NCBI RefSeq assembly: GCF_000091665.1
Contig: NC_000909.1
Span: 730,712 to 762,711 of the forward strand
Length of the DNA: 32,000 nt
Direction: 5' to 3'
DNA from: Methanocaldococcus jannaschii DSM 2661
GTDB taxonomy: Archaea; AGJL01; Methanococci; Methanococcales; Methanocaldococcaceae
The notes below the pieces were generated by a model. The model saw nothing but the letters and a program-made list of their open reading frames with translations. It made no database searches and was not told where the DNA came from. Below, in pieces: positions 3,644 to 17,752 of this stretch (the first letter of the stretch is position 1; each line of letters opens with the position of its first letter). Made by a program: the position numbers and the translations under genes.

Positions 3644-4963
3644 TTAAGATATAGATTTATAAATCTTCCTTGCCTCTTCATCTGCCAAATCATAAACCTT
3701 TATTACCTCATCAGAAATAGCCTTTAAAGTTTCAGTTGGGAATGTTTCAACAAACACAGAGATTAATTTAGCATTATACTCATTTTTAAACTTATCAAAC
3801 TCTTTTAAAAATACATCATTCACTTCAGCATAACCGTCAGTTATAAGCAAGATGTCAGCATTTTTAAATGTCTCATGCTCTTTTATTATACTCATAGCCC
3901 TATTCAACGGCATTATAAAGTTTGTTCCTCCACCAAAATATAATGATGCTATTTCAATTATTTCATCAAATGTTATAGTTTTTGGATTTATCTTCTTCTC
4001 AAATCTAACTCCATCATCAAAGGCAATGTAGTAGATATCTCTATTTTCCCTCTTGGCAATCTCTATTATGGATAAAGCAACGGCCTTCCCCCAAATCTCC
4101 CTATCTCCATACATTGAACCACTGTGGTCTAATAAAATAATTATAGGTCCTTTCTGCTTCTCCAACTTATTCTGAATATCATAGATTAAGAGCTTTTTAT
4201 CAACGAATCTTCTTAAAAAGTCATAATATAGAATCTCATCTGAAAGATTGACGATTTCTTTTGGAAGTAGATGCTTTAAATCCCTCCCAATTTTTGTTGA
4301 ATAAATTTCTCCAGAGTAGTGCTTAATCTTTGATTTATATTCATTTATAGCCAACAATCTCAACTTACCAAGTTTTTTAACAATCTCTCTAATCTTTTTG
4401 TTTTGCAAGATTTTATCTGCCAACTTTATCCTATCCTCTGGCGATAGTAGCTTTTTATCTCCCTCCCCTTTCCCAAAGTTTTCAACGGCATTGAATCCTT
4501 GTATAACTTCAGAAACCTCCTCTGCTATATCTTTCATAGTATTTTTGGCTATTTCTTTTAATTTATCCTCTAACCCCTCTCCTTTTCCTTCAGATGCAAA
4601 TTTCTTTAACTCTTTATTTAGTTTTGCAAGTTTTAAGTTTTCAAAGAATTTCTCACAGAACATTATTGTGGCAGTTCCAGCATTTACCTCATCCAGTTCA
4701 GTTAATAGCTTACTCTTCTCATACTCAATATTTTTTATAGCTCCCTCTAATATAGCCTTGTTTATCTTAAATTTTTCTTCAACATACTCATTGAATTCAA
4801 CAACATATTTAAAGAATGCATAAAATGTGTCTTCAGCCAATTTTTCATGAATTGGATGATATTGAGAATAATAACTAATGAGTTTTTGCAAATATTTGCT
4901 GTTCTTTAAAAATCTCTCATAAGCCTTTTTATCATAAGCATCGTGCTTTATAATGTTTTTCAT
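3644..4963 (-). CDS. ViaA-like von Willebrand factor A (VWA) domain protein
   Basis: C-terminal VWA domain with the MIDAS motif ILLDHSGSM, plus GGGTNF and LLITDG. The N-terminal helical region is long. The start is 3 nt after the stop of the RavA-like ATPase. Confidence 0.8.
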   Translation of the reverse strand: MKNIIKHDAYDKKAYERFLKNSKYLQKLISYYSQYHPIHEKLAEDTFYAFFKYVVEFNEYVEEKFKINKAILEGAIKNIEYEKSKLLTELDEVNAGTATIMFCEKFFENLKLAKLNKELKKFASEGKGEGLEDKLKEIAKNTMKDIAEEVSEVIQGFNAVENFGKGEGDKKLLSPEDRIKLADKILQNKKIREIVKKLGKLRLLAINEYKSKIKHYSGEIYSTKIGRDLKHLLPKEIVNLSDEILYYDFLRRFVDKKLLIYDIQNKLEKQKGPIIILLDHSGSMYGDREIWGKAVALSIIEIAKRENRDIYYIAFDDGVRFEKKINPKTITFDEIIEIASLYFGGGTNFIMPLNRAMSIIKEHETFKNADILLITDGYAEVNDVFLKEFDKFKNEYNAKLISVFVETFPTETLKAISDEVIKVYDLADEEARKIYKSIS

Positions 4964-4966
4964 AAC

Positions 4967-6088
4967 TTATCCCTTCAATAACCCTTCAACATACTTTTTA
5001 AAGCCCTCTACCTCTTTTAAAACATCTTCAACAAGTTCATAAGGTTTGTTAGCCTCAATTGCTTTATTTTTAACATCTTTTAAAGTTATGGACATGCTAT
5101 TCAACTTCCCTAAAATCTCAAGGCATTTTCTATATTCTATTCCTCCCAATTTAATTCTATCTTTGTTGATTTTCTTTATCTCATTCATTAAGCTGTCTAA
5201 AATTTCCCTCTGTTCTAATGCAAATCCAGCAAAGTGATTTGATATTTTAAAAATTTCTACTGAAACCTTATAGAACTCATCTGGCTCATTCCAATAGATA
5301 TGCCTCAAAATGTCTAAATCATTTTCATCAGCTTTTTCTTTGCCGTTTAGATAGGCAAAGCACTTAACTGCTTTAACTGACTTCTTAAATCTCCTGTCAG
5401 AGATTCTTATTCCCTCACTTTCAAGAGACAATTTTATTTTAATTAAATCATCTTTTATATTTGAAATATCAACCTTTAACGCTTCATTCTGCATTTTTTT
5501 AACATCTTCAACATCAATTATAGTTTTTGGCTTATATTCTTCCTCTAAATCAATCAACTTTGAGAGATTTTCATAGCTTCTTATTCCCCTAACCACTTTT
5601 CTAAACAAAAATCTATCATAAAATGCTAATAACTCATTCTCTTCTGGTAGTTCGTTTGAAGCACCGAATAAACTTATCAAAGGAACTTTCTCAATCCTAT
5701 CTCCATTGTGATAAATCCTCTCATTGATTATTGATAATAAAGCGTTTAATATTGAACTGTTAGCCTTAAAAACTTCATCTAAGAATGCTATTTCTGCAGT
5801 TGGTAGATAACCAGATGTTTTTCTAACGAATCTGTCATTATCCTTTAACTCTTTAATGCTTAAAGGGCCGAATAACTCATCTTCGGTTGTGAATCTTGTT
5901 ATAAGTTTTTCAAAGTAGTTGGCGTTTATATGGGAAGCTATAGCCCTAATTAATTGTGATTTAGCTACTCCTGGATTTCCTAAAAATACAGTATGTTCAT
6001 TAGCCAAGATTGAAGTTAAAGCAATATCAATCTCCTCCCTCCTTTCTAAAAAATATGAGTTTAACTCCTCTCTGATTTTTTCAAGCAT
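4967..6088 (-). CDS. MoxR-family AAA+ ATPase, RavA-like
   Basis: Walker A GNPGVAKS and Walker B AFLDEVFKA. The stretch TRFTTEDELFGPLSI..LKD..RFVRKTSGYLPTAEIAFLDE...ILNALLSIINER...ASNELPE...YDRF is colinear with E. coli RavA as I remember it. Confidence 0.85.
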   Translation of the reverse strand: MLEKIREELNSYFLERREEIDIALTSILANEHTVFLGNPGVAKSQLIRAIASHINANYFEKLITRFTTEDELFGPLSIKELKDNDRFVRKTSGYLPTAEIAFLDEVFKANSSILNALLSIINERIYHNGDRIEKVPLISLFGASNELPEENELLAFYDRFLFRKVVRGIRSYENLSKLIDLEEEYKPKTIIDVEDVKKMQNEALKVDISNIKDDLIKIKLSLESEGIRISDRRFKKSVKAVKCFAYLNGKEKADENDLDILRHIYWNEPDEFYKVSVEIFKISNHFAGFALEQREILDSLMNEIKKINKDRIKLGGIEYRKCLEILGKLNSMSITLKDVKNKAIEANKPYELVEDVLKEVEGFKKYVEGLLKG

Positions 6089-6098
6089 AATTTTTCAC

Positions 6099-6848
6099 CT
6101 AAATTTTATATTTATCTAAATAGCCTCTTGGTGTAATCATCTTGCCATTGATAATCTTTGTTGAAGAATTACCAATGATTAATATTGTATTCATGTCTAT
6201 AAACTCCAAGTATTTTTCTAAGTTTTTATAAAGATCTTTGAAGTTTGTAATTACAACTTCTTCTTTATTTCTACCAGCATTTTTAACTATCCCAATTATA
6301 TAATCTTTATCCTTTGCAAACTCAGCCAATATTTCCATAGCTTTTAAGAATGGTTCTTTCCTCCTTTTACTTAGTGGATTGTATATGCATATAACAAAAT
6401 CTCCCTCTAACGCACATCTAAACCTCTTTAATATTGTCTCTAAAGGGGTTAATAAATCACTAAAGCTTATAACAACAAAATCATGATTTAACGGACTTCC
6501 TAAGATTGCTGAAGCTAATGAACATGCGGTTATCCCTGGAACAACCTTTATATCTACGTTATAACCTTTAACTGCGTTTATCTCATAAGCTAACGAAGCT
6601 AAGCCATAAATTGTTGCATCACCACTTGAAACTAATGCAACATCTTTATCTTTAGCCTCTTTTAAGGCATAATCAACTCTATCAATTTCCCTTGTCATTC
6701 CAGTTGTATATATTGGCTTGTTAAGCCTCTCAACAAACTTTTTGTAATTTTTATAACACACTATTAAATCCACTTTATTTAAAATCTCCTCAGCCTCTTT
6801 TGTAAAATGCCTCTCATTACCGCTTCCTATACCTACAACATACAGCAT
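6099..6848 (-). CDS. cbiH: Cobalt-precorrin-3 / cobalt-factor III C17-methyltransferase (CbiH/CobJ family)
   Basis: Tetrapyrrole methylase fold: VVGIGSG at the N-terminus, VSSGDATIYGLAS, and DFVVISFSDLLTP...ICIYNPLSKRR, which is typical of CbiH. Confidence 0.85.
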   Translation of the reverse strand: MLYVVGIGSGNERHFTKEAEEILNKVDLIVCYKNYKKFVERLNKPIYTTGMTREIDRVDYALKEAKDKDVALVSSGDATIYGLASLAYEINAVKGYNVDIKVVPGITACSLASAILGSPLNHDFVVISFSDLLTPLETILKRFRCALEGDFVICIYNPLSKRRKEPFLKAMEILAEFAKDKDYIIGIVKNAGRNKEEVVITNFKDLYKNLEKYLEFIDMNTILIIGNSSTKIINGKMITPRGYLDKYKI

Positions 6849-6852
6849 ACTA

Positions 6853-8872
<2,020 letters not shown>

Positions 8873-8936
8873 AATTTTTGTTATTAAGATAGATTGGAGT
8901 AACAGCAATTATTAATTTTAAGTATAGGCAAATATT

Positions 8937-9830
8937 TTATTTTATCATTGATAAAATTTCTTCAGATGCATCTGTTGGTTCTTTAAAGCCTTTATAAACC
9001 TCTTTAACTACCTTTTTTATAAACTTCTCTTTATTTTTATCAATTTTACAACTTTGAATGCATAGAGGACAGTAATTTAAATAATTCTCATCCTTTTTAA
9101 TTTTTATTGGAAAGAGTTCAAAAAAGTTTATAATCGTTCCTTTATTATATTTAAAAACTGCAGTATCTAAACAGCTTGTAAATACGTAGCCCTCTAAATC
9201 TTCTATAATCTTATCTTTTAAAAATCCGTAGGGAAAGGAATCAATAAGATTTTTTATCTTATCCTTTGTAATGTCTAATTTTAAAAATTTATGGCCTATA
9301 TCTTTATTATTTAAAAAATTAGCAATCTTCTTCTTGGTTTTATTTGGGATTAATGCTGGGAAATCATAAGTTATTGCTTTAACATTAAAAATATTTGATA
9401 AAATATCTAAGGCATATAAATCATATTGGCAGTGAATTAAGCATATAATATTCTTTTTCTCTTTAGGAATCTTTCTGTATAAAAAATAGTTACAGATGTC
9501 TTGGATAACTTCATCATCAAATAAAGATTTAATTGCCTTTACAATTTCTTCAAATAAAACTTTGTCAGTATAATCCTCAACCCTTATAATCTCAAATCTA
9601 TTTTTCATCTCCTCCCTTAATTTTCCAACTACCCAGCCGCCAGGTCCAATAATTGTTGATTTGTCAGTTCTGTTTTTTGTGTAAATAATTAAAACTTTCC
9701 CTTCTATCTCAATATCTACAATATCAAACTCTACCTTCTTCAGTCCTAAATCTTCTCTAATCTTTAAAACTCTTTTTTTAATATCATTAATTATCTGTTC
9801 TTTTAACTGCAATAATTGTTTGTCCTGCAT
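8937..9830 (-). CDS. Hypothetical protein with N-terminal KH-like GxxG motif
   Basis: [12 protein letters not shown] is a KH-type GxxG loop. There are C-terminal Cys pairs (CPLCIQSC). A good SD (GGAGAGAGGGTG) is present. The ORF overlaps the psd 3' end by 44 nt. Confidence 0.6.
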
Positions 9831-14117: not shown

Positions 14118-14891
14118 ATGAAAATAGCAATAACTGGAAAAGGAGGAGTAGGAAAAACATTTATTGCTTCAACATTAATGAGATTATTTGAAAAAAATGG
14201 ATTTAAAGTTATTGGAGTTGACTGTGATCCAAACCCTACATTGGCATTAGCTTTTGGAGTTGAGGAAGAGATAGTTCCATTATCAAAAAGACATGACATA
14301 ATAGAGGAAAGAACTGGAGCTAAACCAGGGACTTATGGAAATATTTTTAAAATAAATCCAAAAGTTGATGATTTAATAGATAAAGTTGGCTATAAAATAG
14401 GAAACATAACTCTCTTGGTTATGGGAACTATTGAAGAAGGGGGGGAGGGTTGTGTTTGTCCAGCCTCTGTTTTATTGAGAAGATTGTTAAGGCACTTAAT
14501 TTTAAAGAGAGATGAAGTTGTTATCTTAGATATGGAAGCAGGAATTGAACATTTCGGAAGAAAAACAATAGATACTGTTGATTTAATGTTAATTGTTATA
14601 GAACCAACAAAAAAATCTCTAATAACTGCAAAGAGAATGAAAAAATTAGCTAATGATTTAGGAATAAAAAACTTAGGAGTTATTGTTAATAAAGTAAGGA
14701 ATGAAGATAAAGAGTTACTAAAAGATATTATTAAAGAGGAACTTGGTTTAGAAGTTTTAGGATTTGTTCCTTATGATGAAGAAGTTATAAAAAGTGAATT
14801 CTTAGGAAAACCTATTAACTTAGATTCAAAAGCTGCAAAAGAGATTGAAAAAATATTCAACTATATCATAAAATTAAAAAATACTACTTAA
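14118..14891 (+). CDS. cooC: CooC-type nickel-insertion accessory ATPase (MinD/ParA superfamily)
   Basis: Deviant Walker A GKGGVGKT and the CooC-specific metal-binding motif EGCVCPAS (CxC). Confidence 0.8.
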   Translation: MKIAITGKGGVGKTFIASTLMRLFEKNGFKVIGVDCDPNPTLALAFGVEEEIVPLSKRHDIIEERTGAKPGTYGNIFKINPKVDDLIDKVGYKIGNITLLVMGTIEEGGEGCVCPASVLLRRLLRHLILKRDEVVILDMEAGIEHFGRKTIDTVDLMLIVIEPTKKSLITAKRMKKLANDLGIKNLGVIVNKVRNEDKELLKDIIKEELGLEVLGFVPYDEEVIKSEFLGKPINLDSKAAKEIEKIFNYIIKLKNTT

Positions 14892-15780
14892 TCTTGAAGT
14901 ATGGCTCTCTTCTATTTATACATTCAATAAAATATGGTTCTAAATTCTCTCCTTTTCTTAATGGAGTTAATACATCAACTAAGTTATCATCCCTCAACAA
15001 ACATGGTTTTAAATAGCCATCATAAGTTAATCTTATCCTTGTGCAGTGCATGCAAAACTCACTATTATCCATAGGCCTTACGAACTCTATTTCCAATCCA
15101 TCAACGATATATTTTTTCCTATTCTGCATGAAGTTTCTTGTAATAACTTTATCAGCTTTTTCTTTAATTTCATTTTCTATTGGAGAGATGTTATAATAAT
15201 AGCCCTTAAGCTCTTCTTTCAAAGGGATGAATTCAATAATTTGTAAAATAGCCCCAATATCCCTACAAAATTCCATAATATCTGGTAAATCTTTAATATT
15301 TATACTCATTGCTAAAAAATTGACCTTTAAAGGGGTTAAGCTAACATCTATTGCTTTCTTTATCCCATTTATTACTCTCTCAACATCTCCAAATTTTGTA
15401 ATTTTTTTATATAATTCGGGATTTAATGTGTCTAAGCTCACATTAACTCTATTTAGCCCAGCATCTTTAAGTTTTTCAGCTAAATTTTCTAAAAGGATTC
15501 CATTGGTTGTTAAAGAAATGTCTTTTATTCTTTCATCTTTGATATTTTCAATAATTTCACAAACATCTTTCCTCAGTAATGGCTCCCCACCAGAGATTTT
15601 TATTTTTTTAACTCCAAATTTTGTTGATGTCTTTGCTATAATCCCAATTTCTTCTGGAGTCATATATCTATCGTTATTTGAATCATGCCCCTCTCTATGG
15701 CAATAAAAGCACTGTAAATTGCATTTATTTGTTATAGAAATTCTAAGAGACCTAATTTCCCTACCAAATTTATCTTTCAT
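14884..15780 (-). CDS. moaA: GTP 3',8-cyclase (molybdenum cofactor biosynthesis protein A)
   Basis: Radical SAM CNLQCFYCH, GGEPLLR, and a C-terminal second-cluster Cys motif (CMHCTRIRLTYDGYLKPC). There is an 8-nt convergent overlap with cooC. Confidence 0.9.
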   Translation of the reverse strand: MKDKFGREIRSLRISITNKCNLQCFYCHREGHDSNNDRYMTPEEIGIIAKTSTKFGVKKIKISGGEPLLRKDVCEIIENIKDERIKDISLTTNGILLENLAEKLKDAGLNRVNVSLDTLNPELYKKITKFGDVERVINGIKKAIDVSLTPLKVNFLAMSINIKDLPDIMEFCRDIGAILQIIEFIPLKEELKGYYYNISPIENEIKEKADKVITRNFMQNRKKYIVDGLEIEFVRPMDNSEFCMHCTRIRLTYDGYLKPCLLRDDNLVDVLTPLRKGENLEPYFIECINRREPYFKIK

Positions 15781-15880
15781 ACTTACTCACTACTAAAAAA
15801 TTAAGGTTTTAAAAATAGAATTGGGAAATTAATTATAAAAAAGCTACGTAATGATTTTAGATTAATTAAAGTATATAAAT

Positions 15881-17167: not shown

Positions 17168-17752
17168 ATGTTTTGGTTTTGGCTAATATTAGGAATTATA
17201 GCATTATTTATAATTGTTAAAGCAATAGTTATAGTCAATCAATATGAGGGAGGATTAATCTTTAGATTGGGGAGGGTTATTGGAAAATTAAAGCCAGGGA
17301 TAAATATAATAATTCCATTCTTAGATGTGCCTGTTAAGGTTGATATGAGGACGAGAGTTACCGATATCCCTCCTCAAGAGATGATTACAAAGGATAATGC
17401 AGTTGTAAAAGTGGATGCGGTTGTTTATTATAGGGTTATAGATGTTGAAAAGGCAATTTTAGAAGTTGAGGATTACGAATATGCTATAATAAACTTAGCT
17501 CAAACCACATTGAGGGCAATAATTGGTAGTATGGAGTTAGATGAGGTTTTAAATAAAAGGGAGTATATAAACTCAAAGTTATTGGAAATTTTGGATAGAG
17601 AGACAGATGCATGGGGAGTTAGGATTGAAAAGGTTGAAGTTAAAGAAATAGACCCACCAGAGGACATTAAAAATGCCATGGCTCAACAAATGAAGGCAGA
17701 GAGATTGAAGAGAGCAGCAATATTAGAGGCAGAGGGAGAGAAGCCAGAGTAG
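17168..17752 (+). CDS. SPFH/band-7 (stomatin/prohibitin-like) protein, prematurely terminated N-terminal part
   Basis: A TM helix followed by the SPFH core ([13 protein letters not shown]...DAVVYYRV...LRAIIG...). The probable start is ATG 17168, 1 nt after the NfeD stop. The ORF ends at TAG 17750-17752 in the middle of the conserved AEGE repeat region. Confidence 0.8.

Follow-up and report, generated by a model that had tools for sequence, protein, structure and literature searches.

A RavA-type ATPase without a LARA domain and its ViaA-like adaptor in Methanocaldococcus jannaschii: a probable accessory protein-remodelling chaperone

We analyzed a 32,000-nucleotide stretch of the chromosome of the heat-loving methanogen Methanocaldococcus jannaschii (the window) and found that two adjacent genes in it, both real and well conserved, encode a MoxR AAA+ ATPase of the RavA subfamily and a ViaA-like VWA adaptor. 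It is probable that the LARA-less RavA-type ATPase and the ViaA-type adaptor together form a self-contained, ATP-driven protein-remodelling chaperone, which the Methanococcales acquired as an accessory and which acts on a non-cobamide client. Our mechanistic model is drawn by analogy from RavA, NorQD and CbbQO. Here, the ATPase would assemble into a hexameric ring on which one VWA protein docks, and the Mg2+-loaded MIDAS of the adaptor (D279/S281/S283/T347/D376) would grip an acidic side chain of the client. ATP hydrolysis would then be transmitted through the VWA domain, and the client may thus be loosened or reshaped.

The gene pair and its surroundings

The features discussed here are the following, with positions counted in the window:
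3644..4963, minus strand: ViaA-like VWA adaptor (VWA1), 439 aa; from the ORF, profiles, BLASTP and an AF2 model
4115..4129, minus strand: MIDAS motif DxSxS of the adaptor, D279-H-S-G-S283 (DHSGS); from sequence and homologue alignment
4964..4966, minus strand: spacer of 3 nt separating the stop of the ATPase gene from the start of the VWA gene
4967..6088, minus strand: MoxR AAA+ ATPase of the RavA subfamily, LARA-less (MoxR1), 373 aa; from the ORF, profiles, BLASTP, an AF2 model and a fold search
5774..5791, minus strand: Walker B, IAFLDE, residues 100-105; F102, D104 and E105 invariant in 47 homologues
5957..5980, minus strand: Walker A, GNPGVAKS, residues 37-44; G37, G40 and K43 invariant in 47 homologues
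6099..6848, minus strand: cbiH (cobalt-precorrin-3 C17-methyltransferase), the conserved upstream neighbour, listed for context only
6853-7965: dys (deoxyhypusine synthase), upstream of cbiH
7982-8908: MfnD-equivalog ligase, upstream of dys

The ATPase gene ends with a TAA stop at 4967-4969 and the ATG of the VWA gene is located at 4963; the two genes are probably translationally coupled across the spacer. On the other side, 10 nt separate the end of cbiH, which is identified by TIGR01466 (330 bits, cut-off 246), from the start of the ATPase gene, and an AGGTGA sequence is found upstream of this start. An earlier note on this DNA had reported the open reading frames, the 373-aa ATPase, both gaps, the DHSGS motif, dys and an MfnD-like ligase, and our coordinates agree with it throughout. 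The pair is flanked by cbiH on one side and by a convergent AMMECR1 gene on the other, and the co-directional array comprises eight genes of mixed function, with archaetidylserine decarboxylase, MfnD, deoxyhypusine synthase and CbiH representing four unrelated pathways. A scan of the array for TATA boxes and T-runs was uninformative. Literature searches with MJ0811, MJ0812 and MJ0077-0079, which we take to be the locus tags of the pair and of the paralogous module described below, returned nothing relevant, the sole 'MJ0811' paper being an unrelated bile metaproteome study; searches on MJ0815 and MfnD likewise found nothing relevant.

Comparisons with four species gave dN/dS values of 0.02-0.06 for the ATPase and 0.05-0.10 for the VWA gene (rough values, as dS is saturated), which are equal to or below that of cbiH. 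Strong purifying selection thus acts on the two genes.

Family, motifs and fold of the two proteins

The ATPase has the single AAA+ module of MoxR proteins, with intact Walker A and B motifs, sensor 1, arginine finger and sensor 2; N145 of sensor 1, R159 and R232 of sensor 2 are invariant in the 47 homologues. It matches the Pfam families bpMoxR (184 bits), AAA_5 (100 bits) and AAA_lid_8 (58 bits), and the same search gave no match to AAA_3, CbbQ_C or Mg_chelatase (PF01078). The earlier note had held the protein to be colinear with RavA across the AAA+ core. This is indeed seen in a BLASTP alignment with E. coli K-12 RavA (33% identity over 341 aa, E 3e-56), in which Walker A (GNPGVAKS), Walker B (FLDE), sensor 1 (ASNE), DRF and SDRR all correspond. 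RavA is also the nearest sequence in the PDB (phmmer E 8e-49, followed by the MRP-type 2r44 at 2.6e-4) and the nearest fold, with 3nbx (Foldseek E 2.6e-21, TM 0.68) ranking before 2r44 (2.4e-12) in a search with the AF2 model (pLDDT 94). A VWA partner adjoins the ATPase gene, directly downstream in 13 genomes, as is the case in the RavA subfamily in the sense of Snider and Houry, summarised in PMC3893208. The ATPase is a RavA-subfamily MoxR protein whose nearest characterised relative, by sequence and by fold, is RavA, and it did not group with another MoxR subfamily.

The ATPase is distinct from RavA proper, scoring 200 bits against the RavA equivalog model (NCBIfam NF010054), below its cut-off of 681. 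Neither LARA_dom (PF20265) nor RavA_C (PF12592) could be detected in it, and both were found in the control, E. coli RavA, with 135 and 83 bits. In the model, a C-terminal bundle made up entirely of helices (residues 269-372) comes after the AAA+ core and lid, the chain being purely helical over residues 193-372. These features bear on a polyamine link that had been thought conceivable, in which a RavA-LdcI-like regulation would be tied to deoxyhypusine synthase or spermidine; dys is located two genes upstream of the ATPase gene in core Methanocaldococcus species. The two missing domains and the helical model speak against such a link. So does the lack of any match to the LdcI-type decarboxylase family PF01276 in the 99.9%-complete genome, where positive controls did match, in line with the earlier statement that LdcI has no obvious counterpart in a methanogen. 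The dys adjacency, moreover, has been lost in M. villosus and in both Methanotorris species, and we consider the polyamine link almost certainly wrong.

The adaptor VWA1 consists of a helical N-domain (residues 1-214), a conserved linker (215-270) and a VWA domain (270-439), with Pfam VWA_2 extending across residues 274-377. Its MIDAS (DxSxS...T...D) is complete: D279, S281, S283 and D376 are invariant in 33 homologues and T347 is nearly so, with DHSGS corresponding to residues 279-283. The VWA1 homologues contain no conserved Cys/His motif outside the MIDAS. Residues 228-380 align with E. coli ViaA in BLASTP (33% over 170 aa, E 1e-19), and hhalign relates residues 162-425 to ViaA 183-471 with a probability of 99.9, the pre-VWA linker thus being homologous and the N-terminal ~160 aa remaining unaligned. 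Against the ViaA equivalog model (NCBIfam NF008230) the adaptor scores 80 bits, below the cut-off of 500. Its AF2 model (pLDDT 87.6) resembles VWA domains, including NorD of the NorQD complex (9qhe_G); every Foldseek match in the PDB was to the VWA domain and none to the helical N-domain. These findings together support the earlier description of a RavA/ViaA-type pair.

The VWA domain additionally gives a weak match to the cobaltochelatase model TIGR02442, scoring 21 bits where the cut-off is 779. Class I chelatases had been offered as an analogy, and the pair would then be the AAA+/VWA motor of a CobN-type enzyme, comparable to the AAA+/VWA pairs CobS/CobT and ChlI/ChlD; the genome does hold two CobN homologues. 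However, the ATPase is devoid of PF01078, and one CobN gene is already adjoined by a ChlI/ChlD-type AAA_5 gene. We rejected a co-variation of CobN with the gene pair: CobN is present irrespective of it, in 28 of 31 good genomes including all pair-less lineages, ~100 kb or more away and never adjacent. The analogy is not supported, and a chelatase motor appears very improbable.

The cbiH junction, a paralogous module and the spread of the family

In 15 of 16 genomes cbiH is found directly upstream of the ATPase gene, including genomes that have no dys and mfnD there, and the earlier expectation that this adjacency is conserved among related genomes was confirmed. M. villosus and both Methanotorris species have kept the junction despite rearrangement on both sides, which makes it the most persistent junction of the array. 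This persistence could reflect selection for co-expression, a point that counts against our preferred explanation.

A survey by GTDB phylum yielded only Methanococcales, and a related-locus search was used for the wider comparison. Among good Methanococcales genomes, cbiH occurs in all 31 and the gene pair in 17 of 30, with none in the seven genomes of genus g4. Because cbiH and MCR are universal and the pair is present in about half of the genomes, the pair would be at most accessory. Outside the Methanococcales a cobamide neighbour was seen at one of 85 family loci (cobQ in M. conradii) and is not conserved, homologues of CobQ, CbiH and CbiE being absent within 7 kb at three other Methanocellaceae, 22 further archaeal and 60 more loci. 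We rejected the M. conradii cobQ as independent cobamide support, as the three other Methanocellaceae and the further loci are without such genes. As a cobamide-pathway component the pair fails on co-occurrence and on recurrent linkage in independent lineages, and it does not represent one of the core steps in making cobamide. The cbiH adjacency is old and stable but does not reveal what the pair works on; an ancient junction in a tightly packed operon is a likelier explanation for it than a shared function.

The same genome contains a second module adjoining MCR II, composed of a NikR-like gene, MoxR2, a 207-aa protein and VWA2. Identity amounts to 71% between the two ATPases and, along the whole length of the proteins, to 37% between VWA1 and VWA2. 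The second module differs in the added 207-aa protein, in the RHH/NikR-fold gene upstream, and in its location beside mrt, not cbiH. No paralogue of the 207-aa protein was found elsewhere in the genome, and the idea that it is hidden inside the longer VWA1 was rejected, no similarity being found. We also rejected the NikR-like gene as a nickel link, its product containing neither His nor Cys. In our tree MoxR1 and MoxR2 fall together into a single Methanococcales clade (support 100), and the MoxR1 clade and the MoxR2 clade each hold Methanocaldococcus and Methanotorris. Judging from these sequences, the two paralogous modules arose inside the Methanococcales. The MoxR2 module is divergent from mrt (MCR II) in nine genomes from two families. 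In M. fervens mrtBGA have become pseudogenes through frameshifts and the deletion of 182 aa from McrA, and the VWA2 gene there has two frameshifts with the ATPase intact; in M. formicicus, cbiE is one gene away from MoxR2. MoxR2 is present without MCR II in three genomes, and M. igneus has MCR II without MoxR2. A literature search combining 'MoxR' and 'methyl-coenzyme M reductase' found nothing relevant. Both modules touch tetrapyrrole-enzyme genes, which again counts against the best explanation.

The pair may be a chaperone dedicated to maturing or repairing an enzyme with a tetrapyrrole cofactor, and would open its client for insertion or exchange of cobamide or F430/Ni, by analogy with NorQD for FeB and CbbQO for inhibited Rubisco. 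Here, the client of the MoxR1 copy would be a corrinoid protein or an enzyme of the cobamide pathway, and that of its paralogue would be MCR II. The cbiH junction that outlasts the loss of dys and mfnD, the divergent arrangement with mrt, the M. fervens pseudogenes and VWA2 frameshifts, and cbiE in M. formicicus are all consistent with this idea, and among the MoxR/VWA pairs that have been characterised, factors that remodel metallo-cofactors or active sites predominate (PMC3893208, PMC9976466). However, cbiH and MCR are universal and the pair is patchy, MoxR2 and MCR II occur without each other, the 'NikR' protein is devoid of His and Cys, and a cobamide neighbour occurs at one of the 85 outside loci. 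The adaptor N-domain, the expected client picker, is shared with phages of Firmicutes, and a conserved Cys/His motif outside the MIDAS is absent. We regard this alternative as unlikely. The cofactor-insertion hypothesis of the earlier note fares alike: the cbiH adjacency is conserved and the ATPase groups with no other MoxR subfamily, but the universal cbiH, the mixed array, the single cobamide neighbour and the full-length homologues that both genes have in phages of non-methanogens weigh on the other side, so that it is neither refuted nor well supported and amounts to a guess with a low chance of being right. A bolder and still less likely version would make both modules ATP-driven maturation/repair chaperones needed mainly at high temperature, the MCR II copy for F430 loading or reactivation and the cbiH copy for a corrinoid protein, e.g. 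the Mtr methyltransferase. If true, they would correspond, in methanogens, to Rubisco activase (CbbQO) and NorQD.

The ATPase has more than 4,400 homologues, and its VWA partner is represented by 4,701 clusters at 50% identity, many matched over their full length; in the LARA-less branch, the adaptor alone accounts for 700 or more such clusters with strong similarity. By these sequence searches the family is very large and occurs in archaea, bacteria and viruses, its LARA-less branch also circulating in phages. In Moorella phage MTATph1, a 373-aa ATPase is 35.5% identical to the window ATPase, and a 493-aa protein aligns to VWA1 residues 3-395 (E 5e-53). The entire module, with the N-domain of the adaptor, recurs in tailed phages, strong PHROG matches were obtained (phrog_19600 and phrog_24053; 250 and 189 bits), BFVD gave full-length matches, and ATV ORF892 and halovirus VWA proteins, such as that of HVTV-1, are among the fold matches. 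The nearest relatives outside the Methanococcales are 45-49% identical, and three of those inspected are in virus-like or integrated mobile-element contexts. These relatives, the full-length pairs in jumbo phages and the placement of ATV p618 in the RavA subfamily (PMC3893208) would fit a module derived from a virus or mobile element, domesticated or selfish, that acts in virus-host conflict or in the assembly of a virus-like structure, as may ATV p618/p892. Yet its chromosomal position is fixed among housekeeping genes in two families, no integrase, capsid or effector genes are found near the pair, and its dN/dS does not exceed that of cbiH. What marks MoxR-vWA ternary conflict systems is an additional partner, which may be VMAP, iSTAND, FtsH or a beta-propeller, as the third component, together with effector genes that vary (Kaur et al. 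2020, PMC7159879); at our locus the third component is absent and PADLOC gave no match. We rejected the 'conflict system' label of PF20030 as diagnostic because E. coli RavA itself matches it with 191 bits. A viral or selfish role is improbable in our estimate.

We conclude that the gene pair is genuine and probably encodes an accessory remodelling chaperone. For this preferred explanation we envisage a module that moves among bacterial and archaeal chromosomes and viruses, that would have been acquired once by the Methanococcales, and that would have duplicated before the Methanocaldococcus/Methanotorris split. The MoxR1/VWA1 copy may then have come to lie immediately after cbiH, and (hyper)thermophilic lineages may have retained it as an accessory factor.

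Comparison with known MoxR/VWA systems

MoxR/VWA pairs are among the most widespread prokaryotic ATPase systems still without known function, and what RavA-ViaA acts on physiologically is a matter of dispute even in E. coli. The LARA-less branch is very large and extends to phages; any function found would therefore annotate thousands of genes. Two paralogues, one next to a cobamide gene and the other next to the MCR II operon, offer a cheap, testable lead for methanogen biology, and M. jannaschii is genetically tractable. Our evidence at the same time warns against annotating cofactor insertion from adjacency alone.

E. coli RavA-ViaA shares with our pair the two-gene order and tight coupling, the colinear AAA+ core and lid, and the linker and VWA/MIDAS region of the adaptor, and RavA is the best match in sequence and fold. 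In contrast, the window ATPase is without the LARA and RavA_C domains, the genome is without LdcI, both proteins score far under the equivalog cut-offs, and the first ~160 aa of the adaptor are unaligned. Among the viral pairs we compared (ATV p618/p892, haloarchaeal siphoviruses, Moorella phage MTATph1 and Bacillus phage 0305phi8-36), both MTATph1 proteins are homologous over their full length to ours; unlike these, the window pair lies on the chromosome between housekeeping genes, in a position that is syntenic across genera, with no viral genes close by. CobS/CobT and ChlI/ChlD follow the same AAA+ plus VWA/MIDAS logic, but our pair has no significant match to their families and neither co-varies with nor adjoins CobN. 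NorQ/NorD and CbbQ/CbbO, cofactor-insertion and Rubisco-activase systems of the CGN subfamily, combine a MoxR ring with a single VWA adaptor whose N-terminal domain confers specificity and whose C-terminal domain carries the MIDAS, a layout that our pair would share, and they are the source of our mechanistic model (PMC9976466). They belong to another MoxR subfamily, however: the window ATPase has no CbbQ_C and is far closer to RavA, and their client genes adjoin and co-vary with them. In NorQD, one NorD is bound per NorQ hexamer and the MIDAS binds client carboxylates, an arrangement proposed to apply to MoxR/VWA pairs in general (PMC9976466).

Gene array and placement of the pair

The window ATPase (MoxR1) and its VWA-domain adaptor (VWA1), which we take to be MJ0811/MJ0812, belong to a co-directional array in a host genome of 1,739,927 bp on three contigs.

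The pair, followed by the same-strand genes upstream of the ATPase in their order
4967-6088, minus strand: MoxR1 ATPase, 373 aa (ORF table)
3644-4963, minus strand: VWA1, 439 aa (ORF table)
upstream of the ATPase, same strand: CbiH (TIGR01466, 330 bits against a cut-off of 246)
6853-7965, minus strand: deoxyhypusine synthase, dys (NF003052, 633 bits)
upstream of dys, same strand: MfnD equivalog (446 bits against a cut-off of 400)
8937-9830, minus strand: 297-aa protein without Pfam or NCBIfam match
far upstream members of the array, same strand: archaetidylserine decarboxylase, then OB-fold protein

Intergenic gaps are tiny throughout, and a convergent AMMECR1 gene closes the end of the array. 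The ATG of VWA1 follows the ATPase stop after 3 nt, and the 10-nt gap between cbiH and the ATPase gene contains an AGGTGA motif; the ORF table and family searches bear out these spacings, and the upstream dys and MfnD-like ligase genes, as the earlier note had read them. The dys ORF encodes 370 aa (orthologues, 336-350 aa), and its family-model alignment begins at residue 35. Judged from sequence, dys probably begins at an internal Met, in which case a gap of ~100 nt would follow mfnD. Within Methanocaldococcus the array retains the 297-aa protein (76-82% identity), whose gene shares 44 nt with that of the decarboxylase. Not adjacent to the pair but 8 kb away, a 257-aa P-loop protein of the CbiA/MinD/ParA family, weakly NifH-like at its N-terminus (14118-14891, plus strand) could be a metal-centre accessory ATPase.

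MoxR1 matches bpMoxR, AAA_5, and AAA_lid_8, and the sole NCBIfam family that it matches strongly is RavA, with 200 bits where the equivalog cut-off is 681. It shares 33% identity over 341 residues with E. coli K-12 RavA as taken from its database record (E 3e-56), with all catalytic motifs aligned. Among MoxR subfamilies, RavA is nearest both by sequence to a solved structure (8e-49; next best, 2.6e-4) and by fold, as compared with a predicted model of pLDDT 94 (3nbx, E 2.6e-21, TM 0.68; MRP-type 2r44, 2.4e-12). LARA_dom and RavA_C, which are involved in LdcI binding and score 135 and 83 bits in E. coli RavA, are both absent from MoxR1, in whose model everything after residue 193 is helical. 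A counterpart of the LdcI client had not been expected, and indeed no PF01276 decarboxylase was found in the host genome. In the VWA1 model (pLDDT 87.6), residues 1-214 form a helical N-domain, joined by a conserved linker to a C-terminal VWA domain; the intact MIDAS of the latter, already noticed in the earlier note, is seen in the model and in homologue comparison. Its Foldseek matches in the PDB are VWA domains only, including NorD of the NorQD complex. Homology to ViaA spans residues 162-425 (hhalign probability 99.9), and the first ~160 residues lie outside it. Purifying selection on the two genes is strong (dN/dS 0.02-0.10). These homology and fold results for ATPase and partner thus assign the pair to the RavA subfamily as broadly defined in PMC3893208, but it is not orthologous to RavA-ViaA proper. 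The designation RavA/ViaA-type fits the homology to both proteins; the domain content and the sub-equivalog score set the pair apart.

The cbiH junction and a possible cobamide function

The adjacency of cbiH to the pair is conserved: of 16 genomes in which the junction is visible, 15 have cbiH directly before MoxR1, the one exception being M. indicus, with a Ham1 gene upstream. M. villosus, M. igneus, and M. formicicus have lost the dys and mfnD neighbours and kept cbiH, so that cbiH-MoxR1 is the most persistent junction of the array. The same losses dispose of the proposed polyamine link through dys, for which the PF01276 decarboxylase and LARA_dom are missing as well, and which we find scarcely credible. 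In Methanotorris igneus (G028, L067), the cbiH-ATPase and ATPase-VWA gaps are both widened by a repeated hairpin element of ~36 nt (15748-15806 and 17546-17581).

Whereas cbiH occurs in 31/31 good genomes, the MoxR1/2 type occurs in 17/30, with 0/7 in Methanococcales genus g4 and few in g2. Among genomes G000-G040, MoxR1 and its paralogue MoxR2 are restricted to g1, g3, g5, and part of g2, genera holding hyperthermophiles or thermophiles, and their distribution largely parallels that of MCR II. A patchy pair beside a universal cbiH can be at best accessory, at best a factor of thermophilic lineages. Since the array joins four unrelated pathways, adjacency inside it says little.

A 470-480-aa sister clade of the ATPase is common in Methanocellales, Methanomassiliicoccales, Methanoregula, Methanosarcina, and some Asgard archaea. 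In Methanocella conradii, cobQ (cobyric acid synthase, 601 bits) lies directly upstream of a 481-aa RavA-like ATPase, followed by a 510-aa VWA protein and a DUF2115 protein (L060, 6459-11541). We rejected this locus as independent cobamide support and regard it as a lookalike: the adjacency was not found in three other Methanocellaceae, nor were CobQ-, CbiH-, CbiE-, or McrA/B-like genes in the flanks of 25 other archaeal loci, these three among them, and of 60 further loci. On a Methanomassiliicoccaceae chromosome (L065/L084), a long-form ATPase/VWA pair lies directly 3' of a ZnuA/ABC/ABC-3 metal-uptake operon, an arrangement seen once. Of the cofactor-insertion role suggested in the earlier note, the conserved junction survives; the patchy pair, the mixed array, and the 85 outside loci, devoid of cobamide genes except in M. 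conradii, argue against it, as do the phage homologues and family size described below. The analogy to class I chelatases is not supported, as the presence of CobN homologues across genomes does not track that of the pair, and a chelatase motor is very improbable. We somewhat favor an accessory general remodelling module whose adjacency to cbiH is historical.

The paralogous module beside MCR II

MoxR2, encoded in the same genome, is 71% identical to MoxR1; behind it come the genes for a 207-aa protein and for VWA2, a VWA protein 37% identical to VWA1. An RHH/NikR-fold gene precedes this module, which is divergent from the mcrBGA-type operon of MCR II (mrt). In a RavA-rooted tree of 126 ATPases, the Methanococcales sequences all group in a single clade (support 100), dividing into MoxR1 (99) and MoxR2 (85). 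Methanocaldococcus and Methanotorris are present in each, so the duplication is older than their split.

The pair could accordingly be a tetrapyrrole-enzyme maturation or repair factor: nine genomes, drawn from two families, have the MoxR2 module next to MCR II, cbiE lies one gene from MoxR2 in M. formicicus, and in M. fervens (G006, L048; 1908-5244 and 8021-9284) mrt pseudogenes accompany two frameshifts in VWA2. There, McrA lacks residues 92-273 (a 182-aa deletion), McrB and McrG are frameshifted, and MoxR2, the 207-aa gene, and the NikR-like gene are intact; co-decay of client (MCR II) and adaptor is possible. However, the module persists in three genomes that have no MCR II. In one of them, the Methanocaldococcus genome G010 (L068, 8750-10175), a clean deletion has removed mrtBGA from between the NikR-like gene and the conserved gene that comes next, and the NikR-like/MoxR2/207-aa/VWA2 module is intact. 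Conversely, M. igneus keeps a NikR-like gene divergent from mrtBDGA, with no MoxR2 module following (L067, 652-19473); in this species, 8.8 kb separate mrtA from the cbiH-MoxR1-VWA1 set downstream. Encoded upstream of MoxR2, the NikR-fold protein (L029, 7124-7507, minus strand; genome C1:73799-74182) has 0 histidine and 0 cysteine residues, and nickel sensing in the manner of NikR is therefore unlikely. Among the papers that could be searched, none linked MoxR with methyl-coenzyme M reductase. We consider a tetrapyrrole-enzyme role unlikely.

Phage homologues and proposed mechanism

Tailed phages that infect non-methanogens encode full-length homologues of MoxR1 and VWA1 alike, in agreement with PHROG and BFVD searches. 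In Moorella phage MTATph1, a 373-aa ATPase is 35.5% identical to MoxR1, and an overlapping gene encodes a 493-aa protein aligning to VWA1 residues 3-395 (E 5e-53). The closest sequences outside Methanococcales share 45-49% identity, and those inspected come from integrated-element-like regions and from a virus-like contig made up of small co-directional ORFs. A virus- or conflict-related role nevertheless appears to us quite improbable. The virus-like metagenome contig (L063, ~30 such ORFs) has seven tiny ORFs between the ATPase and VWA genes and a TnpB/Cas12f-like gene downstream. At 50% identity the adaptor family falls into 4,701 clusters with a threshold of E <= 0.001, or 739 with E <= 1e-30, and many of them match VWA1 over its full length. 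On these sequence grounds, a methanogen-specific client would be hard to reconcile with so widely common an N-domain, although N-domain specificity could drift at 27% identity.

As a general remodelling module, the pair would form a hexameric ATPase ring with one bound adaptor, whose MIDAS may hold an acidic residue of the client while ATP hydrolysis remodels it. CbbQO and RavA are further models for such a ring/adaptor mechanism, next to NorQD. From NorQD (PMC9976466) the ring, adaptor, and MIDAS scheme is modelled. RavA/ViaA-like pairs lacking LARA are of an already known kind; what is unusual in the window pair is its stable neighbour.
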